Shown here in pieces: positions 843-33,751 of a DNA stretch of 37,218 nucleotides (positions are counted from its first letter, which is position 1; every line of letters begins with the position of its first letter). The stretch is from Gallionellaceae bacterium CG11_big_fil_rev_8_21_14_0_20_60_62. Its GTDB lineage: Bacteria; Pseudomonadota; Gammaproteobacteria; Burkholderiales; Gallionellaceae. The stretch is taken from NCBI GenBank assembly GCA_002787455.1, contig PCWU01000051.1:19217-56434 (forward strand). Direction: 5' to 3'. The position numbers were made by a program, and so were the translations under genes. Under the pieces are notes generated by a model. The model did not search any database and was not told the DNA's origin. It worked only from the letters and a program-made list of their open reading frames with translations.

Positions 843-946
843 CACCACAGAGACACAGAGACACAGAGGAATAGCCTTGCCTTCCACCCCGGGCTTCTGT
901 GGTGTGTCGGTTTTTGTCTCCTCGGTGCTTCTGTGTCTCTGTGGTG
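843..946. repeat. Inverted-repeat element with arms of tandem 8-bp CACAGAGA units
   Basis: Left arm CACCACAGAGACACAGAGACACAGAGGA (843-870) matches the reverse complement of 919-946 at 25/28; extra partial arm CTTCTGTGGTG at 894-904. Confidence 0.9.
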
Positions 947-963
947 TGTATTAGGTTTTTTTT

Positions 964-2274
964 GTGGAATCTCGAACACTTCCCGACTGGCTGACCCACC
1001 TCGAATCGCTGCATCCCAAAACGATTGCGCTCGGCTTGGAGCGCGTGGCGCAAGTCAGGCAGCGGCTCAATCTTCATCCTGATTTCCCCGTTATCGTCGT
1101 CGGCGGCACCAACGGCAAAGGCTCGGTGTGCGCGATGCTGGAAGCCATTCTGCACGCCGCCGGATACAAGGTCGGCTGTTATACCTCGCCGCATCTGCTG
1201 GATTACAACGAGCGGGTGCGAATCGCCAAACAACAGGCAAGTGATGCGGAGTTGTGTGCTTCATTCGAAAGAATTGAACAGGCGCGCGTAGGTCGGGCTT
1301 CAGCCCGACTGGATGATGTCGGGCTGAAGCCCGACCTACAGCTTACCTACTTTGAATTCGGCACGCTGGCGGCGATGCAGCTTTTTATCGAGCACAAGGT
1401 GGATGTCGTCATCCTTGAAGTGGGACTGGGCGGCAGACTGGATGCGGTGAACGTGTTCGATGCCGACGTTTCGGTGGTAACCAGCGTGGACATCGATCAC
1501 ATTGATTATCTTGGCGAGACACGCGAGCAGATCGCGTTTGAAAAGGCTGGCATCTTCCGCCGGGGGCGCGTGGCGATCTGCGCCGACAGCGATGTGCCGC
1601 AGGCGATAAGCAAACATGCACAGGAGATCGGCGCCGAATTGTGGTGCATGGCCAGTGAATTTGGTTTTAGGGCACATCAGGGGCAATGGGATTTCTTTGG
1701 CCAATCCGGTGAACGCCATGCCATGCCAGTGCCGGCTTTGCGCGGCGCGTTCCAGTTGCACAACGCGAGTGCGGCATTGGCCGCTCTGGATGCTTTGAGG
1801 GATTGTTTGCCGGTGAATATGGAAGCAGTGCGGCGGGGACTGGTTGAGGTGGAGCTTCCCGGCCGTTTCCAGTTTGTGCCGGGGCAACCGCAGTTGATTC
1901 TCGATGTGGCGCACAACCCTCATGCGGCGCGTTCGCTGGCGCAGAACCTGGCCAATCTGCCGCCGGCGAAAACGTTTGCGGTGTTCGCCATGCTCAAGGA
2001 CAAGGATGTGGCCGGGGTGGTTGCGGCGCTGGACGCGCATATTGATGTGTGGCTGGTCGCCGGGATCGATGCGCCGCGCGGCGCGACGGCGGCGGAACTG
2101 CGGCGGGTTCTGGAAAAACAGGGGGTGCGAGGCGAGATCGTGACCTGTTTGGCCATCGCGAATGCCCTGTATGAGGCCGGCAATCGCGCATGTGAAAATG
2201 ATAGAATCGCAGCCCTTGGATCATTCTATACGGTAGCGGAAGTGATGCGGCTGCGCGGTGTGCGTGGCGCTTGA
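964..2274 (+). CDS. folC: Bifunctional folylpolyglutamate synthase/dihydrofolate synthase with an in-frame REP doublet
   Basis: GTNGKGS P-loop, YTSPHL, LTYFEFGTLAA, LEVGLGGRLDAVN, DVAHNPHAA; accD-folC-dedD-cvpA-purF synteny; GTG start. Confidence 0.97.
   Translation: MESRTLPDWLTHLESLHPKTIALGLERVAQVRQRLNLHPDFPVIVVGGTNGKGSVCAMLEAILHAAGYKVGCYTSPHLLDYNERVRIAKQQASDAELCASFERIEQARVGRASARLDDVGLKPDLQLTYFEFGTLAAMQLFIEHKVDVVILEVGLGGRLDAVNVFDADVSVVTSVDIDHIDYLGETREQIAFEKAGIFRRGRVAICADSDVPQAISKHAQEIGAELWCMASEFGFRAHQGQWDFFGQSGERHAMPVPALRGAFQLHNASAALAALDALRDCLPVNMEAVRRGLVEVELPGRFQFVPGQPQLILDVAHNPHAARSLAQNLANLPPAKTFAVFAMLKDKDVAGVVAALDAHIDVWLVAGIDAPRGATAAELRRVLEKQGVRGEIVTCLAIANALYEAGNRACENDRIAALGSFYTVAEVMRLRGVRGA
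1288..1339. repeat. GTAG-type REP doublet (REPIN-like) inside folC
   Basis: GTAGGTCGGGCTTCAGCCCGAC (1288-1309), 8-bp spacer, then the perfect reverse complement GTCGGGCTGAAGCCCGACCTAC (1318-1339); each unit is itself a hairpin. Confidence 0.93.
2199..2207 (+). promoter_or_regulatory. Possible extended -10 (TG-A-TAGAAT) internal promoter for dedD-cvpA-purF
   Basis: TGATAGAAT inside the folC 3' end, ~85 bp before the dedD ATG; motif match only. Confidence 0.35.
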
Positions 2275-2290
2275 GCTTTTCGATTCGACT

Positions 2291-2887
2291 ATGGCAAAAC
2301 AAATCACGACCGACGGCGAATTTACCTTACGGCGCCAGGCCAGACGCCGGCTGATCGGCGCAATTGCGCTGATGCTTGGCGTTGTTATTTTTCTGCCCAT
2401 GATATTCGACCCGGATCCGGCATCGACCGCGGTCGGCGACATCGAATTGCGCATCCCAGAACGGACGGAGGTGGCGCCTGTGCCGCAGGCGGCGCAGGAG
2501 GGGGCGCCAAAAGTTGAACTTGCCGTGCCGGACGAAAAACCCGTTCCAGTCGAGTTCCCCGTCGAGACTGCCATTGCGCCAGTGACGGCCCCGCCCGCCA
2601 AAATCGAGACGACTGTCAAACGCGAGACGTACGTTCCTCCGGCTCCCGCGAAGGTGCCGGGCAAACCTTCCGGCTGGGTGGTGCAGGTCGGTGCCTATTC
2701 AAAAGAAGAAGCGGCCAAACAGATGGTGGACAACCTGAAAAAGCGCGGCTACCCGGTCTATACCGAGCGCGCCGGCAGCATGTTGCGCGTGCGGGTGGGA
2801 CATTATCCGGACAGGAAGGCAGCCGAAAAGACACTTCGCAAGCTGGAAGCCATCGGTTTGCACCCGAATGTGCTCAGTCCGGAATAA
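2291..2887 (+). CDS. dedD: SPOR-domain cell division protein DedD
   Basis: ARRRLIGAIAL plus TM helix, Pro/Ala-rich linker, C-terminal SPOR domain (WVVQVGAYS...RVRVG); lies between folC and cvpA; ATG 2291 chosen over the upstream GTG that overlaps folC. Confidence 0.9.
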   Translation: MAKQITTDGEFTLRRQARRRLIGAIALMLGVVIFLPMIFDPDPASTAVGDIELRIPERTEVAPVPQAAQEGAPKVELAVPDEKPVPVEFPVETAIAPVTAPPAKIETTVKRETYVPPAPAKVPGKPSGWVVQVGAYSKEEAAKQMVDNLKKRGYPVYTERAGSMLRVRVGHYPDRKAAEKTLRKLEAIGLHPNVLSPE

Positions 2888-2893
2888 GCGCGC

Positions 2894-3373
2894 ATGTCGG
2901 TCTTTGATATTGCGGTGTTGGTGATTATTGCCCTGTCGGCTGTGCTCGGCTGGTGGCGCGGGTTTATGTACGAGCTGTTTTCCCTGCTTGGCTGGGTGGC
3001 GGCGTATATCGTGGCGCGCACTTCATCGGCGCAACTGCTGCCCTACATTCCGTTGGCGATTGCGGATCCTGGCCTGCGCGGGGCAACCGCTTTTGCCGCC
3101 ATGTTTATTGCTATCCTGATCGTGGCGGCGATTTTTGCCTGGTTTCTGTCGAAACTGGCCAAGTTTGCCGGTCTGGCCGGGCTGGACGGCAAATTTGGCG
3201 CAATGTTCGGTGTCGCGCGCGGGGTGCTGCTGGTGCTGGCGCTGGTGTGGCTGGGCGGCCTGACCAGTCTGCCGCAGCAATCCTGGTGGAAGAACGCCTG
3301 GAGCAGCAAACCCCTGCAGCAGGCGGCGCAATATGCGAAAGAATATGTGCCGACAGATATCGTGCCAAAGTAA
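2894..3373 (+). CDS. cvpA: CvpA (colicin V production) family membrane protein
   Basis: RGF..E..SL..W motif, LDGKFGAMFGVARG, four hydrophobic segments; directly upstream of purF. Confidence 0.93.
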   Translation: MSVFDIAVLVIIALSAVLGWWRGFMYELFSLLGWVAAYIVARTSSAQLLPYIPLAIADPGLRGATAFAAMFIAILIVAAIFAWFLSKLAKFAGLAGLDGKFGAMFGVARGVLLVLALVWLGGLTSLPQQSWWKNAWSSKPLQQAAQYAKEYVPTDIVPK

Positions 3374-3406
3374 TCCGACAAAATTTATCTTAAAGCGGGA
3401 AAGACC

Positions 3407-4933
<1,527 letters not shown>

Positions 4934-4937
4934 GCGA

Positions 4938-4967
4938 TTGACAGTGCATGGCGGACAGTGCTAATTT
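4938..4967 (+). promoter_or_regulatory. Sigma70 promoter for the metZ leader
   Basis: TTGACA (4938-4943), 18-bp spacer, TG-C-TAATTT extended -10 (hexamer 4962-4967), just before the riboswitch. Confidence 0.65.
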
Positions 4968-4972
4968 TCACC

Positions 4973-5024
4973 CGCGCCGATTTGAGGAACAGCTTGCGGG
5001 CGCATTACAAATACAGCTAAAGCG
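4973..5024 (+). ncRNA. SAM-II (SAM_alpha-like) riboswitch aptamer
   Basis: GCGCC-GATTT...CTTGC-G-GGCGC...AAATACAGCTAAAG: P1 GCGCC/GGCGC, ATTT/AAAT pseudoknot pairing and the AGCTAAA tail match the SAM-II pattern; upstream of a methionine gene. Confidence 0.85.
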
Positions 5025-5028
5025 GGGG

Positions 5029-5066
5029 AACCCGGTTTGGCGCTAAGCTTTCCGGGTTTTTGTTTT
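5029..5066 (+). terminator. Intrinsic terminator-like hairpin between the aptamer and metZ
   Basis: AACCCGG (5029-5035) / CCGGGTT (5052-5058) followed by TTTGTTTT. Confidence 0.6.
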
Positions 5067-5077
5067 GAGGAGCAATC

Positions 5078-6256
5078 ATGTCGGATAAAAATTCTTATCA
5101 GCCGGAGACCGTGGCAGTGCGCGCGGGGAGCGAGCACAGCCAGTTCCACGAGCACAGCGAGGCGTTATTCCTGACTTCAAGCTTCACCTTCGACAGCGCG
5201 CAGCAGGCGGCGAAGCGCTTCATCGGCGAAGAGCAGGGCAACATCTATTCGCGCTTTACCAATCCCACCGTCACCATGTTCGAGCAGCGCCTGGCTGCGC
5301 TGGAAGGCGCGGAACAATGCGTGGCGACAGCGAGCGGCATGGCCGCGATTCTCTCGACCTGCATGGGGTTGTTGCAGGCGGGTGACCATCTGGTCGCGTC
5401 GCAGAGCATCTTCGGCTCGACAGTGAACATGTTTAACAACGTGTTCAAAAAATTCGGCGTGGAGACGACCTTCGTTTCCGCCACCGATCCCGCGCAATGG
5501 CAGGCGGCGGCGCGCCCGAACACAAAACTGTTTTTTCTGGAAACACCGTCCAATCCGCTCACCGAGATTTCCGACATTGCGGCGATTGCCGCCTTCGCGA
5601 AGCAATGTGGCGCGTTGCTGGCGGTGGATAATTGCTTCTGCACGCCTATCCTGCAACGCCCGCTGGAATTCGGCGCGGACATCATCATCCATTCCGCCAC
5701 CAAGTACATCGACGGCCAGGGCCGCGTGCTGGGCGGTGCGGTGCTGGGCAGCAAAAAACTGATGGAGCCGGTGTACAGTTTCCTGCGCACCGCCGGGCCG
5801 ACCATGAGCGCGTTCAACGCATGGGTGTTCCTGAAAGGGCTGGAAACCCTGAAGCTGCGCATGGATGCGCACAGCGCCAACGCTTTGCAACTGGCGCAAT
5901 GGTTGGAGAAACAGCCTAATGTGGCGCGCGTGTTGTATCCCGGTCTGCCGTCGCATCCGCAGCATGCGCTGGCGATGAAACAGCAAAAGACCGGCGGCGG
6001 CATCGTGGCGTTCGATGTGAAGGGCGGCAGGGACGCTGCCTGGCGCGTGATCGACAACACAAGGATGCTGTCCATCACCGCCAATCTGGGCGACACCAAG
6101 ACCACCATCACCCATCCGGCGACGACAACGCACGCCCGCATCTCGCCGGAAGCGCGCGCGGCGGCGGGCATCAGCGATGGCTTGATCCGCATCGCGGTCG
6201 GGCTGGAAGCGGTGTTGGATATTCAGAACGACTTGGCGCGGGGGCTGGGTAATTAA
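5078..6256 (+). CDS. metZ: O-succinylhomoserine sulfhydrylase
   Basis: EHSEALFLTSSF, YSRFTNPTV, ETPSNP, HSATKYIDGQGR (PLP Lys), ANLGDTKTTITHPATTTH; GAGGAG RBS. Confidence 0.95.
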   Translation: MSDKNSYQPETVAVRAGSEHSQFHEHSEALFLTSSFTFDSAQQAAKRFIGEEQGNIYSRFTNPTVTMFEQRLAALEGAEQCVATASGMAAILSTCMGLLQAGDHLVASQSIFGSTVNMFNNVFKKFGVETTFVSATDPAQWQAAARPNTKLFFLETPSNPLTEISDIAAIAAFAKQCGALLAVDNCFCTPILQRPLEFGADIIIHSATKYIDGQGRVLGGAVLGSKKLMEPVYSFLRTAGPTMSAFNAWVFLKGLETLKLRMDAHSANALQLAQWLEKQPNVARVLYPGLPSHPQHALAMKQQKTGGGIVAFDVKGGRDAAWRVIDNTRMLSITANLGDTKTTITHPATTTHARISPEARAAAGISDGLIRIAVGLEAVLDIQNDLARGLGN

Positions 6257-6275
6257 TATGCAACAAAAGGCAAAA

Positions 6276-6361
6276 TTAGCCACAGAGAACACAGAGTTCA
6301 CAGAGAAAAGCGCGGACAGGTTTCTGTTTTCCTTTACGGCCTCTGTGATCTCTGTGGCTAA
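6276..6361. repeat. Inverted-repeat element with arms of tandem 9-bp CACAGAGnn units
   Basis: TTAGCCACAGAGAACACAGAG (6276-6296) matches the reverse complement of 6341-6361 at 20/21; three 9-bp units on the left arm. Confidence 0.9.
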
Positions 6362-6374
6362 AAGGTTTTAACAG

Positions 6375-6866
6375 ATGGATGTGCTGGCTGCACAGGTTGG
6401 AGGCGCGCTCAAGGCGTATGGGTTGATGCTGGCGACGGCGGAATCGTGCACCGGCGGCGGGGTGGCGCAGGCGATTACCGGCATCGCGGGGAGTTCTGCC
6501 TGGTTTGAGCGCGGTTTCATCACCTATTCCAATCAGTCGAAACAGCAAATGTTGGGCGTGGCGGAAGCGACGTTGATCGGCCATGGTGCAGTGTCCGAAG
6601 TGACGGTGCGCGCGATGGCGGCGGGCGCGCTGGAACACAGTGCGGCGCAGGTGGCGTTGGCGGTAAGTGGCATCGCCGGGCCGGACGGCGGCACGCCGGA
6701 CAAGCCGGTCGGCACGGTCTGGTTCGCTTGGGGAATCAGACACGGCGCGACGTTTGCTTGTTTGCACCACTTGTCCGGCAACCGTGCCGAAGTGCGCGCG
6801 CAGGCAGTGCGGATTGCGCTGCAGGGGGTGTTGGCGCTCTTGCAGCAGACAACTGCCAGCGCCTGA
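6375..6866 (+). CDS. pncC: CinA C-terminal domain protein / NMN deamidase PncC
   Basis: TAESCTGG, GSSAWFERGFITYSN, GAVSE, SGIAGPDGGTPDKPVGTVW; upstream of recA. Confidence 0.92.
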   Translation: MDVLAAQVGGALKAYGLMLATAESCTGGGVAQAITGIAGSSAWFERGFITYSNQSKQQMLGVAEATLIGHGAVSEVTVRAMAAGALEHSAAQVALAVSGIAGPDGGTPDKPVGTVWFAWGIRHGATFACLHHLSGNRAEVRAQAVRIALQGVLALLQQTTASA

Positions 6867-6867
6867 C

Positions 6868-7006
6868 GGGCACCGCTAATAATCCAAATTTCGTCGCAAT
6901 ACAGCGTTGCTCTCAAAAATTACTCTTTACATATCATGCATATGCTGCGTCGCAATTTTTTGCTCGCGCCTGGTCTTGCTTGGAACTTTGAATTATTAGA
7001 GGCCCC
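6868..7006. mobile_element. MITE-like nested-hairpin element with terminal inverted repeats
   Basis: CTAATAATCCAAATTTC (6876-6892) matches the reverse complement of 6983-6999 at 15/17; GGG.../...CCC ends; inner pairs AAAAATT/AATTTTT and CATAT/ATATG; AT-rich, non-coding. Mobility is inferred. Confidence 0.7.
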
Positions 7007-7018
7007 TGAAATCACTTA

Positions 7019-7032
7019 AGAACGAACGTTCT
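7019..7032. promoter_or_regulatory. Putative non-canonical LexA (SOS) box GAAC-N4-GTTC
   Basis: AGAAC-GAAC-GTTCT with palindromic half-sites, ~57 bp upstream of the recA ATG and next to the expected -35 region (candidate -10 CACAAT at 7055-7060). Confidence 0.8.
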
Positions 7033-7088
7033 GTACAACTCCAAATTGCTGTGCCACAATCTGCCACCATTTTTTGAAAGGGAACACC

Positions 7089-8562: not shown

Positions 8563-8650
8563 GAGCCATGCCTGAATAGCCTGCCAAATGGTATGATTCG
8601 CGCCGTGATGCCGCCTGCAAGGCGGTGTGTTTAACCAGGGGAAAGCAGTT

Positions 8651-8781
8651 GCCCGCAGATTACACAGATTACGCAGATTTCCACAGATAAAACAACAAGA
8701 ACCACTGGATCAGCTTACTCACCTTTGGCGTGGTCCGGCACTCATTCTGGATCACCGGAAAATTTGCGTTAATCTGCTGGC
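8651..8781. repeat. Inverted-repeat element with arms of tandem 9-bp CRCAGATTA units
   Basis: Left: CGCAGATTA CACAGATTA CGCAGATTT C CACAGATAA (8654-8690); right arm AAATTTGCGTTAATCTGCTGGC, terminal 12 bp match at 11/12. Confidence 0.8.
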
Positions 8782-8831
8782 TGAACTGCGTTTTTAAGGT
8801 TTATTGAACAATCATGGCTAGCGGTGATCCG

Positions 8832-11492
8832 ATGAAAAGCAGTGAGATTCGCCAGAAATTCCTCGACTATTTTGCCTCCAAAGGCCATACCGTCGTACCA
8901 AGCAGTTCGCTGGTGCCGCACGAAGACCCGACGCTGTTGTTCACCAACGCGGGGATGAACCAGTTCAAGGATGTGTTCCTCGGTTTCGACAAGCGACCCT
9001 ATACCCGCGCTACGTCTTCGCAAAAATGTGTGCGCGCCGGCGGCAAGCACAACGACCTGGAAAACGTCGGTTACACCGCACGTCACCACACCTTTTTTGA
9101 AATGCTGGGCAACTTCAGCTTCGGCGATTACTTCAAGCGTGATGCCATCAATTACGCATGGGAGCTGCTGACCGAAGTATTCAAACTGCCCAGGGAAAAA
9201 CTCTACGTCACCGTGTATGCCGAGGATGATGAGGCATACAACATCTGGACCAAGGAGGTCGGTCTGGAAGTCTCCCGCGTGATCCGCATCGGCGACAACA
9301 AGGGCGCGCGCTACGCGTCCGACAACTTCTGGATGATGGGCGACACCGGCCCCTGCGGCCCCTGCACCGAAATTTTCTACGACCACGGCGCGCACATCCC
9401 CGGCGGTTTGCCCGGCACGCCGGAAGAAGACGGCGACCGCTATATCGAAATCTGGAACAACGTGTTCATGCAGTACAACCGCGACGAAGCCGGCGTGATG
9501 CATCCGCTGCCCAAGCCTTCCGTCGATACCGGCATGGGGCTGGAGCGCATCTCGGCGGTGCTGCAAGGCGTACACGCCAACTACGAGATCGACCTGTTTG
9601 TCAGTCTCATTGACGCTGCGCGACGTGAGTTGTGGGCGGTTGCAATAGACGATAGTTTTGCTGCACCACTTAACGACTCATCCTTTGACTCTCCGTCATT
9701 GCGAGTCATCGCAGACCATATCCGCTCATGCGCTTTCTTGGTCTCTGACGGAGTGATTCCTGGTAATGAAGGCCGTGGCTATGTACTGCGACGAATCACA
9801 CGACGCGCAATCCGTCACGGTTACAAGCTCGGTGCTCGAAGACCGTTCTTTTATCGGCTTGTGATAGAGCTCGTCCGTCAGATGGGTGATGCTTATCCTA
9901 ATTTAGCTGCCAATCAACAGCGAGTGATGGATGTGTTGAAGCAAGAAGAAGAACGTTTCTTTCAGACCATCGAACACGGCATGGCCTATCTCGAAGCCGA
10001 TCTGGCCGAGATGGAAAAGACGGGCGTAAAGGTATTCAACGGAGAAATCGCCTTCAAGCTGCACGACACCTACGGCTTCCCGCTTGATCTGACCGCCGAC
10101 ATCTGCCGCGAGCGCGGGGTTACGGTGGACGATGCCGCCTTCAATGCCGCGATGGCGCGCCAGAAGGAACAGGCGCGCGCCGCCGGCAAATTCAAGATGG
10201 CCGCAAATCTCGACTATTCCGGCCCGGCGACCACCTTCCACGGTTACGACACGCTGGAACACAATGGCAACATACTTGCCTTGTACAAGGATGGCACCGA
10301 AGTGAACGAACTGGTCGAAGGCGACCTAGGCGTGGTGGTGCTGGACGACACCCCGTTCTATGCCGAATCCGGCGGCCAAGTCGGCGACAGCGGCGAACTG
10401 CGCAGCGTGCACGGCATCTTTGCAGTCGAGGATACACAGAAGATTCAGGCGGCGGTGTTCGGCCACCACGGCGTGGTGAAGACCGGCAAGCTTTCCGTGG
10501 GTAATGGCGTGAATGCGCGCGTGGACATGCAGGCGCGGGCGCGGACCGAGCGCAACCATTCGGTGACACACCTGATGCACAAGGCTTTGCGCGAGGTGCT
10601 GGGCGCGCATGTGCAACAGAAGGGGTCGCAGGTCGATGCCGACAAGACGCGTTTCGATTTCGTGCAGAACCAGCCGATGACGGATGCCGATATCCGCCGC
10701 GTGGAGGCGCTCGTCAATACGGAGATCCTCGCTAATAGCGCGACCGAAGCCAGCGTGATGCGCATTGAGGATGCGCAGAAGACGGGGGCAATGATGCTGT
10801 TCGGCGAGAAGTACGGCGACGAAGTGCGTGTGCTGTCCATCGGTAGTTCAAAAGAGTTGTGCGGTGGGACGCACGTAAAGCGCACCGGCGACATCGGCCT
10901 GTTCAAGATCGTGGCCGAAAGCGGTGTCGCGGCCGGCATTCGCCGCATCGAAGCGGTGACCGGCGAGGGCGCGCTGGCGCGGGTGCAACAGCAGGAAGAT
11001 CAATTGCAGCAAGTGGCCGATGCGGTAAAAGTGCAACCACAGGAAGCGGCGGCGCGTGTCGCACAGATCATTGATCACGTGAAAATACTGGAGAAGGAGC
11101 TTGCCGCACTGAAATCGAAACTCGCTTCCGCGCAGGGCGACGAATTGGTCGCGCAAGCCCAGGACATCAGCGGGGTGAAAGTGCTGGCTGCCAGGCTGGA
11201 CGGCGCCGATGTGGCGACCCTGCGCGAGACCATGGACAAGCTGCGCGACAAGCTGAAGTCCGCGGCGATTGTGCTGGCTGCGGTGAATGAGGGTAAAGTG
11301 AGTTTGATCGCGGGGGTGACGGCTGATGCGACCGCGAAAGTGAAGGCGGGCGAGTTGGTGAATTTCGTCGCGCAACAAATCGGCGGCAAGGGCGGCGGCA
11401 GACCGGATATGGCGCAGGCGGGGGGCACGCAACCGGAGCATCTGGCCAAAGCGCTGGCCTCGGTTCCGGATTGGGTAAAGTTGAAACTTTGA
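8832..11492 (+). CDS. alaS: Alanine--tRNA ligase (alternative start 8814)
   Basis: [50 protein letters not shown]...ELCGGTH editing motif, [15 protein letters not shown]. Confidence 0.99.
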
Positions 11493-11494
11493 TC

Positions 11495-12079: not shown

Positions 12080-13857
12080 AAGTGTTGCGAACTTTGTTTG
12101 TCGCCACTGCCGGGGCGGATGCGGACCGCGTCGTCCAGGCTTTTGCCGCAAGCGGTTATCGGCTGACACCCTGCCATGCGGTAAATATGCCTTCACTCAA
12201 GGCGTGCCTGCGCGAACTGCCGCAGATCATCTTCATTTTTCCCGGGTCAAGATTATCGATTGAAAAAGTGGTTGCCGTGCTGCGCGCGGGAGAGATGGAT
12301 ATCCCCTTTATTGTCCTGCTGCGTGAGCCGGGCCAACTCAATTTAACCGAGACGATGCAATTGGGCGCGCAGGATTGCGTGGCGCTGGAAGACAGTCAGC
12401 GCCTTGTGCCCACAGTGGAGCGCGAACTGGTGGCAGCTGTTTTACGCTATAACCTGCGCGAACAGATCGTCACCGACCACCTGTTGCAGGAAATCGACCA
12501 GTACATTCTGCATAAATATCCGATGCACGAGGTGGCCGGCCGCATCTGCCAGCGGATGGTTGATTTGTTTGGTTTCAGTTTGGTCTGGCTGGGCATGAAG
12601 GCGGCTGATGGAACGATCGAAATCAGCGACGCGGCGGGGGCGAAAAATTATTTGAAAAATATCGCGGTGAGCTGGGACGATACGCCGCGGGGGGGCGGAC
12701 CGGCCGGGGTTGCGGTGCGCGAGAATCGGCCGGTCGTGCTGAGCACCGATGCGCCGCAGTTTGCACCGTGGCGCGCGCGCGCGGAACAACACGGCCTGCG
12801 CCGTATCCTGGCTATCCCGTTGGGCTTGCATGGCGAAGTCATTGGCGTGCTGCTGATGTATTCGGCGCAGGAGAGCGCTTTTGATTCCTTTGCCGTCAGC
12901 CGGCTTTCCGCGTTTGCCGCGCGCGTCACCGTGGCGATTATCGAGGCAAGGGAACAACAGGAATTGCGCCTGATGGAAGTCGCCATGCGCAATGCTTCTA
13001 ACGCCATGTTTATTACCGATTACGCGGGGAAGGTGGAATGGATGAACCAGGCGCTGACCCGCATCAGCGGCTATACGCGGGAGGAAATCATTGGGCGTAC
13101 ACCGCACGTTTTTTCATCCGGGCTGCATGAGCCGACTTTTTGGCAGGAGATGTGGTTGCGCATCGCCAGTGGCCAGGATTGGCGCGGAGATATCGTTAAC
13201 CGGAAAAAATCGGGGGAGCTGTATACGGTCACCCAGAGTATCTCGCCCCTGTTCGGGGAAAAAGGAGAGCTGATCAATTTTCTGGCGGTGCAGCAGGATA
13301 TTTCGGAAAAGCGCCGCCTGGAGGAAGAGATTCACTATCTCGCCTATCACGATGCACTGACCGAACTGCCGAACCGTATGCTGTTCCAGGACCGGCTGCA
13401 GCAGGAGATCATCCAGGCCAAACGCAACAAAAGCGAATTTGCCGTCCTGTTTATTGATCTTGACGGCTTCAAGGCGGTGAACGACGCGCGCGGACATGCG
13501 ACTGGCGACAATCTGCTGCAGATTGTCGCGCAGCGTTTGCGCGGCTGCGTGCGCGAGGGTGATACGGTGGCCCGCCTCGGGGGCGATGAATTTACCATTC
13601 TGCTGCGCGGGGTGGGGCATGGTGAAGGCTTGCATCGCGTGTTGCGCAAGATCATCAAATTAGTGGCGCAACCGTATGAACTGGGCGAGCACGCGGAAAC
13701 AGTGACGGCCAGCATCGGCATCAGCCTTTATCCGCAAGATGCCACCGGTGTCGAAAAGCTGCTGATCCATGCGGATGAAGCGATGTATCGCGCGAAACAG
13801 GGCGGCAAGAATCGCTGGGTGATCTATGGGCAGGCGGACGTCGTCATGCCCGATTGA
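12076..13857 (+). CDS. Diguanylate cyclase: degenerate receiver-GAF-PAS/PAC-GGDEF
   Basis: HDALTELPNR, FIDLDGFKAVND, REGD-TVARL-GGDEF (intact I-site and A-site), ADEAMYRAK; GAF (GPAGVAVRENRPV...LAIPL); PAS (GYTREEIIG...DISEKR). Confidence 0.92.
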   Translation: MKVLRTLFVATAGADADRVVQAFAASGYRLTPCHAVNMPSLKACLRELPQIIFIFPGSRLSIEKVVAVLRAGEMDIPFIVLLREPGQLNLTETMQLGAQDCVALEDSQRLVPTVERELVAAVLRYNLREQIVTDHLLQEIDQYILHKYPMHEVAGRICQRMVDLFGFSLVWLGMKAADGTIEISDAAGAKNYLKNIAVSWDDTPRGGGPAGVAVRENRPVVLSTDAPQFAPWRARAEQHGLRRILAIPLGLHGEVIGVLLMYSAQESAFDSFAVSRLSAFAARVTVAIIEAREQQELRLMEVAMRNASNAMFITDYAGKVEWMNQALTRISGYTREEIIGRTPHVFSSGLHEPTFWQEMWLRIASGQDWRGDIVNRKKSGELYTVTQSISPLFGEKGELINFLAVQQDISEKRRLEEEIHYLAYHDALTELPNRMLFQDRLQQEIIQAKRNKSEFAVLFIDLDGFKAVNDARGHATGDNLLQIVAQRLRGCVREGDTVARLGGDEFTILLRGVGHGEGLHRVLRKIIKLVAQPYELGEHAETVTASIGISLYPQDATGVEKLLIHADEAMYRAKQGGKNRWVIYGQADVVMPD

Positions 13858-13870
13858 GCCGTGCCGGCAA

Positions 13871-14884
13871 TCAACGATCCCCGGGCGGCGGGATGTGTTG
13901 CGCGACGGTTTGCGGCGTCAGCTTCAGCATGCAGTCGAAGTGGCCGAGCGGGCATTCGCGTTTGAAGCAGGGGCTGCAGGGCAAATCAAGCTTCAGAACC
14001 TGTGCCCGCGCTGACAGCGGCGGGGTAAATTGCGGGCTGCTGGAACCGAAGATCGCCAGCAGCGGACGGTTTAGCGCGGCCGCGATGTGCATCAATCCGG
14101 AGTCGTTGCTGACGACCAGATCGGCCCCCGCCAGCAGCGCGATTGCCTCGGCCAGATCGGTGTCGCCGCACAGATTTCGCGCCCGCCGATTGCCCAAGGC
14201 GACTATCTTTTCGCCCAGTTCCCTGTCCTTGGGCGAGCCGATCAGCCATACCTGATAACCTCTACCAAGCAATTGTTGCGCCAGTTCGGCATAGTAGTGC
14301 GCTGGCCAGCGTTTGGCCGGTCCGTATTCCGCGCCGGGGCAAAACACGGCAATCGGCCGGTCATGCGAAAGTTTGAATTTGGCCAGCGCGGCAGCCTGTT
14401 CTTCCGCGGAGATTTGCAGCCGTGGCGCGGGCACCGGGCGTGCCACTTCTGTCCCCTTGGCTTCGGCCAGCGCGGCGAAGCGTTCCACCATCAGCGGCAG
14501 TTTGGTTCTGCTCAAGCGGCGCGCATCGTTGAGCAGACCGAAGCGGGCTTCGCTGATGAAGCCGGTGCGCAGGGGAATATTGGCAAAGTAAGGCAGCAGT
14601 GCGGATTTCCAGGAGTTGGGCAGCACGATGGTCTGGTCATAGCCGCCGGCACGCAACTGCGCCCCCAGTTTTCGCCGCGCCCCCAACGCCAATGAACCGT
14701 GGGCAAACGGGTTGGGAATGATCGTGTGCACCTGCGGCATCAGGCGCAGGAGTTTTTCCGTCCAGGGCGGCGCGAACACGTCGATTTGCGCCCCGGGATG
14801 GCGCTGATGCAACCGCTCCAGCATCGGTTGCATCAGCACGCAATCACCCACCCAACTGGGGGTGACGACGAGAATTTTTTTCAT
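13871..14884 (-). CDS. waaF: Lipopolysaccharide heptosyltransferase II
   Basis: MKKILVVTPSWVGD, LPNSWKSAL, CPGAEYGPAKRWP, NDSGLMHIAAA; start set at 14884 because the longer ORF overlaps the upstream gene. Confidence 0.95.
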   Translation of the reverse strand: MKKILVVTPSWVGDCVLMQPMLERLHQRHPGAQIDVFAPPWTEKLLRLMPQVHTIIPNPFAHGSLALGARRKLGAQLRAGGYDQTIVLPNSWKSALLPYFANIPLRTGFISEARFGLLNDARRLSRTKLPLMVERFAALAEAKGTEVARPVPAPRLQISAEEQAAALAKFKLSHDRPIAVFCPGAEYGPAKRWPAHYYAELAQQLLGRGYQVWLIGSPKDRELGEKIVALGNRRARNLCGDTDLAEAIALLAGADLVVSNDSGLMHIAAALNRPLLAIFGSSSPQFTPPLSARAQVLKLDLPCSPCFKRECPLGHFDCMLKLTPQTVAQHIPPPGDR

Positions 14885-15131: not shown

Positions 15132-15151
15132 GATTTCTCCTGAACGTGGAT

Positions 15152-17575: not shown

Positions 17576-17711
17576 TGGCCCGCGAAAAACACGAAAATCC
17601 CTCAAGCGTTCATTTGGCCATAACGGTTGGCGAGTTCACCCCCGAGGTGAGTTATGAAAAACCGCATAAGCAGTTGGTTTATTACCTGCTCCCCGTGGTT
17701 TTCGTGGACCA
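17576..17711. repeat. Degenerate inverted-repeat element with 9-bp CRCGAAAA units and a central hairpin
   Basis: TGGCCCGCGAAAAACACG (17576-17593) matches the reverse complement of 17694-17711 at 15/18; central TCACC-CCCGA-GGTGA (17636-17650); between convergent genes. Confidence 0.7.
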
Positions 17712-24341: not shown

Positions 24342-24377
24342 TCCTCAATCCACTTAATCACGAAAGAAACAGCCGCC

Positions 24378-26689: not shown

Positions 26690-26708
26690 TTCGGATGACG
26701 AGGGGAAT

Positions 26709-27098: not shown

Positions 27099-27099
27099 A

Positions 27100-27411
27100 A
27101 TGCAAAGCATCTATCTCAAATTCTACCTGAGCGAGAAGCATCATCATCGCGGCAAGCTGCTGTCTGAATGGTTGCTTGAGCAAGGCCGGGCGCAGGGCGT
27201 GCCCGGCGGCTCGGTGTTTCGGGCGATTGCCGGTTTCGGCCGGCACGGCCATCTGCATGAAGAAACCTTTTTCGAGCTGGGTGGAGAGTTGCCGATGCAG
27301 GTGGAATTCGTGCTGACGGCAGACGCGGCGGAACATCTCCTCAAGACACTGCGCGAGGAGAAACTGCAACTTCCATTTGTGCGCTATGCGGTGGAAAGCG
27401 GGCTGACCTGA
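27100..27411 (+). CDS. DUF190 PII-like protein
   Basis: GGSVFRAIAGFGRHG, LPMQVEFV; usual partner gene of crcB. Confidence 0.88.
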   Translation: MQSIYLKFYLSEKHHHRGKLLSEWLLEQGRAQGVPGGSVFRAIAGFGRHGHLHEETFFELGGELPMQVEFVLTADAAEHLLKTLREEKLQLPFVRYAVESGLT

Positions 27412-27479
27412 ACGGTCAGCCCGCTTGGCAGGCAGGGTTTCCCCGGGGGGTGCAAAAAATCTGCGGGCCAACCCGGCGC

Positions 27480-27497
27480 GTCGGGCTAAAGCCCGAC
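27480..27497. repeat. Single degenerate REP of the folC family
   Basis: GTCGGGCTAAAGCCCGAC, 17/18 identical to folC 1318-1335, followed by GTGC rather than CTAC; between convergent genes. Confidence 0.8.
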
Positions 27498-27501
27498 GTG
27501 C

Positions 27502-27861
27502 TTACTTGCCGGACAGCAGCAATTTGATCTGTGCTTCGGCTGCGACCCAGTAATCCATGGAGCTGCCCTTGAAACTGTTTTTTTCGGCCAGAAAGTAAGC
27601 CGCTTCCTGCACCATGCAGTAACGCTGTTCGGCACTGGGGGCGGCGGCTTTCTTGCTTGCGCTTTGGGCGCGTGGCGCGGCGGCCTTTGTCACTGCGGGG
27701 CTGGCTTTGGTTGCCGCAGCTTTGGGCGTTGCAGCTTTTGCTGTTGCGGCCTTGGCAGTGGTTTTTGCGGGTGCCGTTTTGGCGGCGGTTTTGGCCGCGG
27801 ATGCGGTGCTCTTGACGGTGCCCGTCTTGCTGGTGCTGGTTGCTTTTTTGGTGGTTGCCAT
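27502..27861 (-). CDS. DUF2934-domain protein with a Lys/Ala/Thr-rich histone-H1-like N-terminus
   Basis: RYCMVQEAAYFLAEKNSF...DYWVAAEAQI C-terminal motif; AAKTA/KAAT low-complexity repeats. Confidence 0.82.
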   Translation of the reverse strand: MATTKKATSTSKTGTVKSTASAAKTAAKTAPAKTTAKAATAKAATPKAAATKASPAVTKAAAPRAQSASKKAAAPSAEQRYCMVQEAAYFLAEKNSFKGSSMDYWVAAEAQIKLLLSGK

Positions 27862-27972
27862 GTTGATCCCCTGATTAAAAAATTTGCCGATGCGCGGAGT
27901 CGCCGTGTGGCTGACCCCGTTCGAGGCGCGGGATTATACAGCGATTTATCTTAACGCCTTGTTATATCTACG

Positions 27973-28728
27973 TTACAGTGTAAGGACGCCGCCCGGACAT
28001 GAGGTGGATTGTTCGACGCGGGTGATGGTCGGCAACAGATTGAGGCCGCTGTTTGCCTTCAGTTCGGTGGCGCGTTCGCGCATCTCTTCCACTTCTATCT
28101 CAACCGTATCGCCTGCCGTGGCAAAGGCGATCACATTGCCGCTGTCGCATGAGGGAAACATCAGTGCGCGGCCGTCGAAGGCGGTTTCGATGTGGGCGAA
28201 GCCGCCCTTTACGCCGCGACTCAGGCCGAGCAGGTTGACCGCGAGGATGCCCTGTTCCGTCAGGCGGGCGCGGCAGGACTGGTAGAACGGCAGGGTGTTC
28301 AGCTCGCCCGGACGCGCGCGTTCGTCGAAGCCGTCGACCAGGATCAGATCGAATTTCTTGTCCGTGCCGAGCATGTATTGCGCGCCGTCGCCCAGCACCA
28401 GATGGATGCGCTTGTCGTCTTCCGGCAGCTTGAAATACTGCTTCGCCGCCGCCACCACGCGCGGTTCGATCTCGACGATGGTCAGCTGTGCCAGCGGCAG
28501 ATTGCGGTAAATGAACTTGGTCAGCGATGCCGCGCCCAAACCGATCAGCAGTACCTTGCGCGGAAAGCGCCGCTCGTCGCGCATCAGCAGCGGCGCCATC
28601 ATCTCTTTGGTGTAGTCCAGTTCCAGGTTCCACGGCCGCGCGATGCGCATCGCGCCCTGGATCCAGCGCGAGCCGAAATGCAGATAGCGGACGCCCGCTT
28701 CCTCGCTGATGTCGATGGGGAAACTCAT
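27973..28728 (-). CDS. Spermidine synthase-like SAM-dependent transferase
   Basis: IDISEEAGVRYLHFGSRWIQGAM, LLIGLGAASL, VEIEP, DLILVDGFD; ATGA overlap with nnrD. Confidence 0.85.
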   Translation of the reverse strand: MSFPIDISEEAGVRYLHFGSRWIQGAMRIARPWNLELDYTKEMMAPLLMRDERRFPRKVLLIGLGAASLTKFIYRNLPLAQLTIVEIEPRVVAAAKQYFKLPEDDKRIHLVLGDGAQYMLGTDKKFDLILVDGFDERARPGELNTLPFYQSCRARLTEQGILAVNLLGLSRGVKGGFAHIETAFDGRALMFPSCDSGNVIAFATAGDTVEIEVEEMRERATELKANSGLNLLPTITRVEQSTSCPGGVLTL

Positions 28729-29636
28729 TGCGGCGCGATCTGGTTCAGCAGCCACCGCGCCCACTCGGTCACTTCGGTTGCGCTCATGCCCAGCGTGGCT
28801 TGCTGCTGCGCCAATGCATCACCCGCCGCGCCGTGCAGATGCACCGCGAGCAACAGCGCCTTGTCGGGCGCGATGTCTTGTGCGATGAAGGCGGCAATCA
28901 TTCCCGCCAGCACGTCGCCCATGCCGGGCGCGCTCATCCCGGGATTGCCGGTGGCGTTGCGGTACAGTCTGCCGTCGCGCGTGGCGATCAGGCTGTTCGC
29001 ACCTTTCAGCACCACGCTGCCGCCAAGTTTCCGTGCCAGACTCAAGGCGGAGCGGGCGCGATCTTGTTGGATGTCTTCCGTGTTGCAACCGAGCAGGCGC
29101 GCCGCTTCGCCGGGATGAGGGGTGAAGACGGCAGGCGCTTTGCGCGTGTGCAGCAGGGTGCGCAGGTCGGGTCGCAGGGCAATCTGATTCAGCGCGTCGG
29201 CATCCAGCACGGACGGCAGGTCGAGCACCAGCGCGTCGTGCAGCAGCTTTTGTGCGGCCAGACTTTGCCCCAGACCGCAGCCTATCAGCAGCACAGGAGG
29301 ATTGATATTGCCTTTCTCGTTCACTCCCTCGCCCGCTTGCGTGAGAGGGTTGGGGTGGGGGAATGATTTCAGCGCATCACCCGCGCCTTGCACCATCAGC
29401 TCCGGCACATTCACATCAACCGCCGGCGCGTTATCCGCCAGCAGACCGACATGCACACAGCCGGCGCCCATCTTCAGCGCCGCCCGCCCGGCAAGCAAAG
29501 CCGCGCCGACCATGCCTGCAGCACCGCCGATGACCGTGACCGCCCCGAACAGGCCTTTATGGCTGTCTTTGGGGCGGGTTTTGAGAAAGGCGGCGACTTG
29601 TTTCCGGCTGATCGCGGCGGGACGTTTGTTGTGCAT
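28725..29636 (-). CDS. nnrD: ADP-dependent NAD(P)H-hydrate dehydratase (YjeF C-terminal domain only) with an in-frame palindromic insert
   Basis: [51 protein letters not shown]. Confidence 0.92.
29324..29361. repeat. CCCTC-type palindromic repeat inside nnrD (encodes [12 protein letters not shown])
   Basis: CTCCCTCGCCCGCTTGCGTGAGAGGGTTGGGGTGGGGG: imperfect hairpin CCCTC.C.CGC/GCG.G.GAGGG plus a G-rich tail. Confidence 0.8.
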
Positions 29637-29662
29637 GGTGTATTCCTCAATTTTCGCGTGGC

Positions 29663-29683
29663 GGCTGCATTATAATCGCAGCC
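29663..29683. promoter_or_regulatory. Overlapping divergent -10 boxes (ATTATAAT) within a palindrome between nnrD and purL
   Basis: GGCTGC-ATTATAAT-C-GCAGCC; TATAAT reads on both strands. Confidence 0.5.
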
Positions 29684-29713
29684 CGTTCTCATTCAGCCCA
29701 AAGTGATCGCGCC

Positions 29714-32700
29714 ATGTTCCTCACCTCGATTGGCAAATCCGCGCTTTCCGCCTTCCGTCTCGACAAGCTGCGCGCCGCGCTGGACGCCGCCCGTTGCGGG
29801 GTAACTGTCGCAGAGACGCGCCATATTTATTTCATCGAACTCTCCGCCGAACTTTCCGCCAACGAGGCGGCTTTGCTGCATCGTCTGCTGAATCTGAATA
29901 GCGGCGCAGGCGAGCCGAAGAACGCGGGGCAGGCGCAGCGCCTGCTGGTCATTCCGCGCCTCGGCACGATTTCGCCGTGGTCATCCAAGGCTACCGACAT
30001 CGCCAGGCATTGCGCGCTGCCGCAGGCGACGCGCATCGAGCGTGGCGTGATGTACTACCTCGGGGCCAGGAGCGGCAAGGCGCTGAGCGCCGCCGAACAG
30101 CAGGCCGTGCTGCCGCTGCTGCACGACCGCATGACCGAATCCGCGCTCACCGACATCGCCGGCATCGAAGCCAAACTGTTCAGCCACGGCACGCCGCAAC
30201 CCTTGTCCTCGGTGGACATCCTCACGGCCGGCCGCGCCGCGCTGGAAACCGCCAACCGTGAACTCGGTCTGGCGCTGTCCGCCGACGAGATCGACTATCT
30301 GGTGGAGAACTTCACCCGGCTGCAACGCAATCCCACCGACGTCGAACTGATGATGTTCGCGCAGGCCAACTCCGAGCACTGCCGCCACAAGATATTCAAC
30401 GCCGACTGGATCATTGACGACGAGCAGCAGGCCATCTCGCTGTTCGGCATGATCCGTAACACACACAAGCTGCATCCGCAAGGCACGGTGATCGCCTATT
30501 CCGACAACTGTTCCGTGATCGAGGGGGCAGAGGTCGAGCGCTTCTATCCGCGCGCCGACGGCGGCTATGCCTACAGCCGCGAATTCACGCACACCCTGAT
30601 GAAGGTGGAGACGCACAACCACCCGACCGCCATCGCGCCGTTCGCCGGCGCAGCTACCGGCTCCGGCGGCGAGATTCGCGACGAGGGCGCCACCGGCACC
30701 GGCTCCAAACCGAAAGCGGGGCTGGCCGGTTTCTCCGTATCCAACCTGCACATCCCAGGTTTCGGGCAGCCGTGGGAAGCCGGTCCGGTCGGCAAGCCGG
30801 GCCGCATCGTTTCCGCTTTGCAGATCATGATTGACGGCCCGCTTGGCAGCGCCGCCTTCAACAACGAATTCGGCCGTCCCAATCTGGCCGGCTATTTCCG
30901 CACTTTCGAAGAGACCGTCAACGGCGAAGTGCGCGGCTATCACAAGCCCATCATGCTGGCCGGCGGTGTCGGCAACATTGCGGCAAATCACACACACAAG
31001 CACGAGCTGCCGGAAGGCGCCTTGCTGATCCAGCTCGGCGGCCCCGGCATGCTTATCGGTCTGGGCGGCGGCGCGGCATCCAGCATGGACACCGGCGCCA
31101 ACGCCGAGAACCTGGACTTCGATTCCGTCCAGCGCGGCAACCCCGAGATGGAGCGGCGCGCGCAGGAAGTCATCGACCGCTGCTGGCAACTGGGCGAGAA
31201 CAATCCCATCCTGTCCATTCATGACGTGGGCGCGGGCGGCATCTCCAACGCGCTGCCGGAGCTGGTGCACGGTGGCGGCAAGGGCGCGCGTTTCGAACTG
31301 CGCAGTGTGCCTTCCGAAGAGCGCGGCATGTCGCCGATGCAGATATGGAGCAACGAGGCGCAGGAGCGTTACGTGCTCGCCATCCCGGCGGAACGTCTGG
31401 ATGAATTCAAAGCCATGTGCGAACGCGAGCGCTGCCCCTTCGCCGTGCTGGGTCGCGCCATCAGCGAAGACCGGCTCATCGTGCACGACACCGAATTCGA
31501 CAACGATGCGGTCGATATGCCGCTGTCCGTTCTGCTCGGCAAGCCGCCCAAGATGACGCGCAAAGTGCGGCGCGAAAAAGTCGCGCTGCCGAAATTCGAT
31601 ACCGCCAACATCGTGCTGAAAGAAGCCGTTAAGCGCGTGCTGCGCTTGCCAAGCGTTGCGGACAAGACCTTCCTGATTGCTATCGGCGACCGCACCGTGG
31701 GCGGCTACACCGCACGCGACCAGATGGTCGGCCCGTGGCAGGTGCCGGTGGCCGATGTGGCCGTGACCACGATGGGTTATCACACCAACCTGGGCGAAGC
31801 CTTCGCCATCGGCGAACGCGCCCCCATCGCTGTCATCGACGGTCCTGCTTCCGGTCGCATGGCTATCGGCGAGGCGCTCACCAACATCGCCGCCGCGCGC
31901 ATCGACCGGATCGGCGACATTAAACTCTCCGCCAACTGGATGGCCGCCGCCGGCCACCACGGCGAGGATGCCGCACTGTTTGACACCGTGAAAGCGGTGG
32001 GCATGGAGTTGTGTCCGCAGCTCGGCATCAGCATCCCGGTCGGCAAAGACTCCATGAGCATGAAAACGAGCTGGGTCGAAGACGCAGCGAGTTTCGGCGG
32101 AGACTCACCTGCAAAGCAGGTTAGTCATAGCCAAAACGCCCCGGAAAGAAAAGAAGTCACCGCACCACTGTCGCTCATCGTTTCCGCCTTCGCGCCCGTG
32201 CCGGACGCCCGCAAGACGCTCACCCCGCAACTCGCCGCCGAGACCGACACCGCCGTGTTGCTGTTCGACCTCGGCTGCGGCCGCAACCGCCTCGGCGGCT
32301 CCGCGCTGGCGCAGGTGTACAAGCAGGTGGGCGACGTTGCGCCGGACGTGGATGACGCCGCCAAACTAAAAGCCTTGTTCGACCTGATCCAGCGTTTCAA
32401 CCGCGAGGGCAAGCTGCTGGCCTATCACGACCGTTCCGACGGCGGCCTATTCACCGCGCTGTGCGAGATGAGCTTTGCTTCGCACATCGGCCTCGACATC
32501 CGCCTGGACGAACTGAAGGGCGATGACCTCGCCGTGCTGTTCAACGAGGAACTCGGCGCGCTGGTGCAGGTGCGCCACGCCGATCTGGCCGAGATCTTCG
32601 TGCTGTGCGAAGAAGCGGGATTGAGCAACGTGCACGAGGTGGCGCGCCTGAACACCGGCGGCACGATCAACATCTCGCGCGGCAAAACGCAACTCTACAA

Positions 32701-33751
32701 CGAGAACGCGATCACCCTGCGCCGCCTCTGGTCCGAGACCACTTACCAGATGCAAAAGCTGCGCGACAACCCGGTCTGCGCGCAACAGGAATACGACCGC
32801 ATCCTCGACGCCAAGGACTCCGGCCTGCATGTGAAGCTGACTTACGACGTGAATGAGGACTTTTTTGTGGGTCGGGATTCACCCAAAGGGTGCGAGAACC
32901 CCTGCGGGGCATCCCGACAAGACGGCATCGGACTGAAGTCCGGCCTACACATTCAGCACTCGACATTCAGCACCGGTCTTGCCCGTCCAAAAATGGCCAT
33001 CCTGCGCGAGCAGGGGGTGAACGGCCACGTCGAGATGGCCGCCGCCTTCGATCGCGCCGGCTTCGCCACAGTCGACGTGCATATGAGCGACATCATCAGC
33101 GGCCGCGCGACACTGCAAGACTTCAAGGGTTTCGTCGCCTGTGGCGGTTTCTCCTACGGCGATGTGCTGGGGGCGGGCGAGGGCTGGGCAAAATCCATCC
33201 TGTTCAATCCGCGCGCGCGCGACGAGTTCGAAGCCTTCTTTAAGCGCAGCGACACTTTCGCGCTCGGCGTGTGCAACGGCTGCCAGATGATGAGCAACCT
33301 GCACGAGATCATCCCCGGTGCCGATAACTGGGCGCACTTCAGCCGCAACCAGTCGGAGCAGTTCGAGGCGCGCTTTGTGATGGTGGAAGTGCAGCCATCG
33401 CCTTCCATCCTGTTCGACGGCATGGCCGGTAGCCGCATGCCCATCGTTGTCGCGCACGGCGAAGGCTATGCCGATTTCGGCAACACCCAGCGCCTGCATG
33501 CCGCACAGCCCGCGGTCACGCTGCGCTATATCGATCACTACGGCAAGCCGACCACCACCTACCCGCTCAACCCCAACGGCTCGCCGCAGGGCATCACCGG
33601 ACTTACCACGCCGGATGGCCGCTTCAGCATCATGATGCCGCACCCGGAGCGCGTGTTCCGCGCCGTGCAGAACTCGTGGTATCCGAAAGAGTGGAACGAG
33701 AACGGCGCCTGGATGCGCATGTTTCTGAATGCGCGGAAGTGGGTGGGGTAA
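29714..33751 (+). CDS. purL: Phosphoribosylformylglycinamidine synthase (large PurL) with two in-frame insertions
   Basis: [44 protein letters not shown], glutaminase domain GVCNGCQ and MMPHPER. Confidence 0.98.
32091..32137. repeat. Hairpin insertion 1 in purL
   Basis: GACT-C-ACCTGC-AAA-GCAGGT-T-AGTC (32102-32126) enclosed by GTTTCGGC/GCCAAAAC (7/8). Confidence 0.65.
32867..32948. repeat. REP doublet in purL interrupted by a nested 30-bp double hairpin
   Basis: GTGGGTCGGGATTCA[30 bp]TCCCGAC, 8-bp spacer, ATCGGACTGAAGTCCGGCCTAC; removing the 30 bp restores a 52-bp element colinear with the folC copy. Confidence 0.88.

Follow-up and report, generated by a model that had tools for sequence, protein, structure and literature searches.

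The DNA analysed here, called the window throughout, is a 37,218-nucleotide stretch from a Gallionellaceae bacterium, located on contig C117 of its own genome assembly (G000; 1.26 Mb, 165 contigs, 54% complete). It carries housekeeping genes, including accD, folC, purF, metZ, cinA, recA, recX, alaS, ilvE, glnE, nnrD, purL and others. These names were assigned from motifs in the translations, and the identities of FolC, NnrD, PurL and AlaS were backed by Pfam. An earlier note had described ten short palindromic elements in this DNA and ascribed them to several repeat-plus-nuclease systems acting in trans. All ten could be read at their given coordinates, and for each of them some relatives have an empty site. 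By sequence, the ten elements fall into six unrelated families: a GTAG-tagged repetitive extragenic palindromic (REP) repeat, BoxC, a 141-bp MITE (miniature transposable element with inverted repeats), periodic arms, a heptamer array and one orphan hairpin. Three of these are known kinds, namely the GTAG REP, BoxC and the MITE with its 4-bp target duplications. In sister genomes, we directly observed a repeat-gene-repeat layout for four pairs, whose genes encode RAYT (REP-associated tyrosine transposase), GxxExxY, DUF559 and four-helix-bundle proteins.

Four elements have periodic arms, as had been proposed, and their arm types match those flanking GxxExxY genes. The first (843..946; 8-nt period, CACAGAG word, GxxExxY-type) places its arms at 843-870 and 919-946 in the accD-folC gap. 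At the metZ-cinA stop/start junction, a 125-bp insertion (6248..6372; 9-nt period, arms 6276-6361) provides the current metZ stop codon. A 170-bp insertion in the recX-alaS gap (8634..8803; CGCAGAT word) has its arms from 8651 on and a junction marked by a 5-bp direct repeat; the gap between a cyclase gene and glnE holds a degenerate element (17576..17710; CACGAAA word, approximate ends). The three proposed GTAG loci, tagged at one palindrome end, also match the REP family. A perfect inverted dimer with 22-nt perfect arms lies in folC (1288..1339, plus strand), and two loci are decayed: one in the DUF190-DUF2934 gap (27430..27499, approximate ends; intact hairpin 27480-27497) and one in purL (32867..32948, plus strand). 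The last proved to be more than a REP locus: its dimer contains a nested 30-bp hairpin and is joined by a CAGCACT-type heptamer array of the four-helix-bundle cassette family (32949..32973, plus strand), giving a composite of three layers. The nested hairpin of the cinA-recA gap (6868..7006) does have the terminal repeats ascribed to it but is reclassified as a standard terminal-repeat MITE of the 141-bp family, with a 4-bp target duplication containing one mismatch. The remaining two elements are a BoxC/TMECO-type repeat in nnrD, a minus-strand gene (29324..29361, plus strand), and an orphan nested hairpin in purL (32088..32144, plus strand, approximate ends), referred to below as the 32091 hairpin. 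The claim that four elements are in frame inside core enzymes also stands: all four are stop-free, with net gains of 14 residues in FolC, 19 in NnrD (BoxC), and 19 (32091 hairpin) and 33 in PurL.

Plain hairpin statistics do not distinguish most of these elements. An unbiased local hairpin scan gave high scores for only three of the ten (843, with 28-nt arms, 1288 and 6276); the other seven are degenerate and were confirmed through family membership and empty orthologous sites. The intergenic elements have A-rich and T-rich flanks, like terminators, and an Rfam search of the window returned no family at gathering score. The idea that they are chance hairpins, terminators or assembly errors is nevertheless refuted by their copy numbers, by clean empty sites and by many public runs that contain this sequence, and we give it almost no credence. 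In G000 the main families have multiple copies, against near-zero counts in the three Markov controls run for each pattern: 38 GTAG REP loci (controls 0, 0, 0), 15 BoxC loci (0, 0, 0), 10 loci of a CGTC type (0, 0, 0), 17, 26 and 3 loci for three variants of the periodic arms (2, 2, 2; 3, 6, 4; and 1, 1, 0), 2 loci of the 6868 type (0, 0, 0) and 3 of the 32091 type (0, 0, 0). Loose patterns (periodic word, REPs, cores resembling Rickettsia palindromic elements) had a high background and were not used, and a heptamer scan of G000 found none, its pattern being too strict. By a heuristic based on coding score over long open reading frames (ORFs), 9 of the 38 GTAG REP and 7 of the 15 BoxC copies are in frame in ORFs; the periodic arms are nearly all intergenic, with one in-frame copy that looks genuine. 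The window sequence was also found in public aquifer and groundwater runs, 7 of which are possibly the source of this DNA, and this identity excludes an assembly artefact.

In contigs from RNA libraries, each of the four in-frame inserts is spanned in unaltered form, and no joint skips an insert. Because two of these libraries may contain DNA, as their even coverage of intergenic DNA indicates, the contigs are not counted as proof of expression; judged from the sequence, the four longer proteins are presumably translated. Joints omitting 843 and 6276 were found in libraries at 90% likeness and probably derive from related species.

Comparison with orthologous loci of the genus revealed presence/absence polymorphism at every site. 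The 843 element is absent in G020 and G069 and present in G054 with its spacer inverted. Indeed, the spacer is inverted in 3 of the 6 periodic elements common to G000 and G054, and one further shared site has a different arm variant in each genome. At the metZ-cinA junction, G054 (~91% identical) is without exactly the 125 bp of 6248..6372, with no flanking direct repeat; G020 is also empty there. Across the genus, 23 of 28 metZ-cinA alleles have no element and 5 are filled by four arm variants; G008 adds another variant, so that six genomes are filled by five arm variants. For the 170-bp recX-alaS element, the window stands alone among 26 alleles (empty in G054, G008 and G020), and close copies occur at other sites in G054. 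When filled and empty sites are paired, a 5-bp direct repeat is seen in two pairs of its CGCAGAT type; two more pairs of periodic elements are unclear, and flanks vary. The 6868 site is empty in G020 and G069, the 17576 element is absent from G054, and so is the 27480 element, whose gap is 51-66 bp longer in the window than in five relatives. Within proteins, 13 of 19 FolC alleles are empty, the NnrD loop is filled in 25 of 44 alleles and short in 19, and the two PurL loops of the window are empty in 49 of 59 (32091) and 28 of 48 (32867) alleles. At the latter, G008 and G020 carry the dimer without the nested piece, and G069 and G073 are empty.

For the periodic arms, the associated gene encodes GxxExxY (TIGR04256), with matches in 14 of 61 genus genomes. 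Inverted arms of three window types lie on both sides of these genes: the 6276 type around the gene at the rarA-serS junction, the 8651 type in G046, G058 and G018, and the 17576 type in G060. In a motif-free test, inverted repeats scoring at least 14 bracketed 98 of 133 GxxExxY loci, compared with 2 of 443 shifted control windows. The 133 remained of 146 loci, drawn from the genus, the wider phylum and a named collection, once duplicate loci, incomplete hits and those with too little flank had been removed; the named records span many bacterial phyla and one archaeon, and the one closest to a genus protein (92%) belongs to a Sideroxydans genome. The cognate cassette at rarA-serS was seen in eleven genomes (L064-L066, L068, L070-L072, L074, L075, L078, L618), with broken copies in G019, G020 and G054 and intact ones in most genomes; several of these cassettes have extra gene-less arm pairs stacked alongside.

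Arm abundance and arm sequence both covary with the protein. With one arm pattern counted in 69 genomes, of which 61 had both arm and gene data, the 10 genomes carrying a cognate gene had a median density of 14.5 arms per Mb, and the 47 genomes lacking GxxExxY genes altogether had 1.5. Among genomes with a completeness of 90% or more, the medians were 18.8 (n = 5) and 1.1 (n = 23). The arm word tracks the protein tree, its position 7 requiring 3 changes compared with 10.7 when shuffled, and threonine at residue 6 of the protein occurs only with G at word position 5 (45 vs 0; 82 of 110 proteins). The putative catalytic residues D65 and K77 do not vary among 110 sequences, and conservation of E75, Q89 and Y93 reaches 90% or more. 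GxxExxY proteins match PF13366 only. A structural model (predicted local distance difference test score (pLDDT) 94.6) points to a PD-(D/E)XK fold near Cas4 and RecB-like nucleases; its nearest fold is Cas4 SSO0001 (Z 8.1, root mean square deviation 3.6 over 99 residues), a modest Z that does not imply function.

The closest described arrangement is that of NTS-ssnA-NTS in the Ssn/SRM system (Chenal et al. 2025, PMC11893778). In that report, a small single-domain nuclease gene is flanked by its own hairpin repeat, of which many gene-less copies exist, and Ssn cuts its repeat specifically; that Ssn also moves the repeat is put forward there as a hypothesis only. Dispersed repeats together with a bracketed putative nuclease gene are likewise found here, for GxxExxY (98 of 133) and for DUF559 (27 of 30, see below). 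The enzymes and repeats differ: Ssn is a GIY-YIG protein (cd10448) with single hairpins, while GxxExxY belongs to PF13366, with a predicted PD-(D/E)XK fold and periodic words as arms, and DUF559 to PF04480. Ssn offers the best model of how the GxxExxY and DUF559 pairs may work.

The Neisseria precedent also feeds a different explanation, in which the repeats are not moved by the partner genes and the arms are an RNA-level or domesticated signal. The arm hairpin would then insulate the inserted gene, or limit DNA uptake as Ssn does, and gene-less copies would be spread by other transposases, replication template switching or recombination. For Ssn, the role shown for the same layout is restriction of transformation (PMC11893778). 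GxxExxY cassettes of the genus sit at junctions between genes and run in the same direction as those neighbours that are recognisable, and some genomes are rich in arms without a matching gene. Template switching can flip spacers without a dedicated enzyme. Set against this explanation are the density that follows the cognate gene, the word that follows the protein tree and the retained putative catalytic residues; since these facts indicate recognition and not movement, they only weaken it, and we consider it rather unlikely.

DUF559 (PF04480) matches 39 of 61 genomes, and BoxC flanks both sides of 27 of 30 DUF559 genes, compared with 0 of 56 controls. The 29324 element has the BoxC/TMECO structure of a C-rich stem, a loop and two G-rich stems, and it fits the published consensus of this BoxC/PIT/TMECO triplex repeat with two mismatches (Holder et al. 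2015, PMC4666352); the copy in G054 fits fully. For E. coli, the same paper gives BoxC as always intergenic and unlinked to mobile elements, and the word "endonuclease" is absent from its text (PMC4666352). Here, unlike in that account, the location is not restricted to intergenic DNA, with 7 of 15 copies in frame, and the repeat brackets DUF559 genes. Whole DUF559 cassettes are in frame in HrpA (12 of 18 regions, plus six other loci) and in two methyltransferase-like genes (L604, L612). At one HrpA position, many genus genomes carry an entire DUF559 domain in frame, with linkers derived from BoxC (L102, L105, L107, L109, L110, L113, L602, L603, L605-L611 and L613-L615).

For the GTAG family, the pairing belongs to the known REP/RAYT system. 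The RAYT profile PF01797 matches 42 of 61 genomes. Although the window's REP was not among the flanks of the 30 top-scoring PF01797 loci, it lies on both sides of the RAYT gene in 2 of 20 short RAYT loci (G058 and G051), and most other short loci are flanked by other GTAG variants. As in the published system, the three window loci are GTAG-tagged palindromes, with dimers, and the same repeat flanks RAYT in sister genomes; in-frame REPs are also in print, including two dimers in PurL of Opitutus terrae (Di Nocera et al. 2013, PMC3733652, available passages). Those passages concern HUH transposases only, with no GxxExxY, DUF559 or four-helix-bundle partner, and do not describe a single loop reused by unrelated families.

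The heptamer array is associated with a gene (TIGR02436) that passes the cut-off in 20 of 61 genomes. Most of the 28 TIGR02436 loci viewed by eye carry inverted 7-base arrays, and the heptamer word of 32949 brackets the gene in four genomes (G011, G004, G022 and G046). The four-helix-bundle gene is also known from intervening sequences of 23S rRNA.

The other two families lack a partner among the loci compared. The 6868 type has matches in 58 of 60 genus genomes and displays the terminal inverted repeats, constant 141-bp length and target-site duplication of a MITE: of 74 end pairs, with most copies counted in both orientations, 36 show the 4-bp duplication without mismatch, compared with ~3 expected after shuffling. 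We presume that its partner is a DDE transposase; no partner gene was found, and no autonomous long element with 6868 ends was present among the fetched loci. At E <= 0.1, 24 of 60 genus genomes hold copies related to the 32091 hairpin, lying in frame within other proteins and within larger repeats; again, no partner gene was found. Judged from its positions, the hairpin may insert into other repeats. In L588 and L199-L213, 6868-type elements and other large ones like them carry it in place of their central loop.

In its features, 6868 resembles prokaryotic MITEs as described in PMC10969869, which also records Rickettsia palindromic elements as a precedent for in-frame insertion in metabolic genes. 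FolC, NnrD and PurL show the same in-frame insertion in conserved metabolic genes. Unlike in the Rickettsia case, the elements inserted in frame here belong to the REP, BoxC, heptamer and orphan families, and 6868 is intergenic.

What appears new at this locus is that loops of PurL, FolC and NnrD have been filled repeatedly by unrelated families. In PurL (1294 residues), three loops carry 48 insertions (16 of 62, 10 of 60 and 22 of 56 alleles) from two to five unrelated families each; outside them we found only two element-sized inserts, four copies of one non-palindromic 8-residue insert and a few small alignment artefacts. At the 32091 loop, the 10 filled alleles among 59 comprise four of the orphan type and six BoxC. 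At the 32867 loop, six alleles have heptamers alone, and the alleles form a series from heptamer only, through heptamer plus REP dimer, to the triple of the window with its nested hairpin. The FolC loop has a GTAG insert in the window and CGTC-type or BoxC inserts in three other alleles, and the NnrD loop is mostly filled by BoxC, also by CGTC- and GTAG-type repeats. The purL loop equivalent to 32867 was also seen filled by a repeat family with a TTCGAC-AGCTCAG core (L544, L545, L551, L557). A second FolC loop near the C-terminus has 32-53-residue inserts of another family that is not in the window (L004, L018, L023).

Such clustering could arise if few positions tolerate insertion, so that elements enter pristine sites independently and the similar flanks reflect convergent repair. 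Consistent with this, the filled 32091-loop alleles are scattered on a tree of the flanking DNA (9 changes, 57 alleles), flanks are not shared at the FolC or 32867 loops, and the FolC insert is predicted by AlphaFold to be a coil between two helices, containing the sole run of at least 3 residues with pLDDT below 50 (113-121). Outgroup PurL sequences, which cover mainly the C-terminal half, have indels in ten position bins; in ~60 genus alleles, several of these bins are always free of elements, and this speaks against tolerance as the sole limit. All 10 filled 32091-loop alleles end in K-E-V-[I/T], and none of the 49 empty alleles has that glutamate. It is two base changes from the common codon and is written GAA in all 10, which argues against convergence; Salmonella PurL also has E at this position, so the residue is structurally acceptable. 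Moreover, the layered alleles show reuse directly. We rate independent insertion at tolerant hotspots as less likely than not. A single origin of the filled PurL alleles by whole-gene descent was rejected (approximately unbiased test for one clade, p-AU 2e-92).

Partner-driven spread together with reuse of opened loops is the reading that we favour, with moderate confidence. Site polymorphism, the link between arm density and the cognate GxxExxY gene, and layering are observed directly. The ten elements are gene-less repeat copies, and each partner protein would recognise its own repeat and help it to spread to new sites. GxxExxY, predicted to be a Cas4/RecB-like PD-(D/E)XK protein, and DUF559 would bind and nick the arms, and host repair or recombination would complete the insertion; the absence of a fixed target duplication and the inverted spacers would both be accounted for in this way. 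For the 6868 MITE, an ordinary DDE transposase would be at work instead. Under selection, the insertions that survive would be those at stop/start junctions and in a handful of surface loops. Once opened, such a loop would then serve as a landing pad in which newer elements nest in or displace older ones, and the opened allele would persist or cross species by recombination. Recognition, nicking and in-trans copying are what we infer for the partner proteins from comparative sequence data.

Several facts weigh against this reading. Assembled G000 has no partner gene: profile searches with TIGR04256, PF04480, PF01797 and TIGR02436 found none in this assembly, which at 54% completeness does not mean absence, and a tblastn search of G000 for remnants gave no real match. 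Among the GxxExxY loci, 35 of 133 are below the arm threshold. G018 and G051 have 143 and 118 arm matches and only GxxExxY genes of other subtypes, and G023 has 51 matches with no GxxExxY gene found; arm and gene are therefore not paired strictly one to one. Kinship among the genomes means that the density and tree statistics are overstated, and the BoxC pattern was composed after the DUF559 flanks had been seen. Junctions of periodic elements are inconsistent, with a 5-bp repeat at two sites and none at 6248. To our knowledge, the four-helix-bundle protein has no nuclease activity. As for reuse, the shared tract at the 32091 loop is only ~9-15 nt, with ~9 nt on one flank and 6 nt on the opposite one; farther out, filled alleles are no more alike than filled and empty ones. 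Flank sharing is clear at this PurL loop, moderate at a second (the PurL 356 loop), mixed with background similarity in NnrD and not seen at the FolC and 32867 loops.

The interpretation in the earlier note is thereby partly supported. The three checks that it proposed came out mostly in its favour, the main families being multi-copy and the sites polymorphic. Its expectation of a gene bracketed by each repeat type is borne out for four of six types, in sister genomes, with 6868 and 32091 as the exceptions; the expectation that this gene encodes a nuclease or transposase suits RAYT, GxxExxY and DUF559, while the four-helix-bundle partner is not known to be a nuclease. The proposal of an undescribed system has to be narrowed, since half of the families are of known kinds (REP, BoxC, MITE) and intragenic REPs are in print (PMC3733652). 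The overall design is known from REP-RAYT and SRM-Ssn, and in-frame inserts from Rickettsia palindromic elements and REPs. In the literature covered, mostly open-access with few subscription papers, we found neither the pairing of GxxExxY, DUF559 or four-helix-bundle genes with dispersed repeats nor a description of shared-site reuse or Vsr-type partners. We tentatively suggest that genes of ~110-125 codons (GxxExxY, DUF559, four-helix bundle) may represent several undescribed minimal selfish elements, which would each read a repeat word of their own, spread gene-less repeat copies without a classical transposase and compete, by nesting and eviction, for once-opened loops in essential enzymes, the opened allele crossing species as a tiny recombination patch.

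These pairings supply DNA targets that can be tested for two large families of functionally uncharacterised nucleases, and they give the long-unexplained BoxC a candidate partner. Because Ssn sets a precedent for sequence-specific single-strand cutters and the arm word varies with the protein, GxxExxY proteins could by analogy form a new group of site-specific nucleases of very small size. The ~60 alleles, empty, filled or layered at the same positions, constitute a natural experiment on the gain of peptide loops in essential enzymes.

Additional features were noted in the window. In alaS, a non-palindromic segment (9640-9730) is 39 nt longer than, and unlike, its counterpart in G054 and G008; from its sequence it looks like a replaced patch, not a repeat insertion. 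Three more short perfect hairpins lie at 13505-13529, 14803-14837 and 27396-27426, the last of which spans a stop codon, is conserved in G054 and G008 and is probably a terminator-like feature. Finally, comparison of L418 and L431 with contigs C31 and C138 of G000 revealed two further MITE-like families of ~150-165 bp, each in one genome only.

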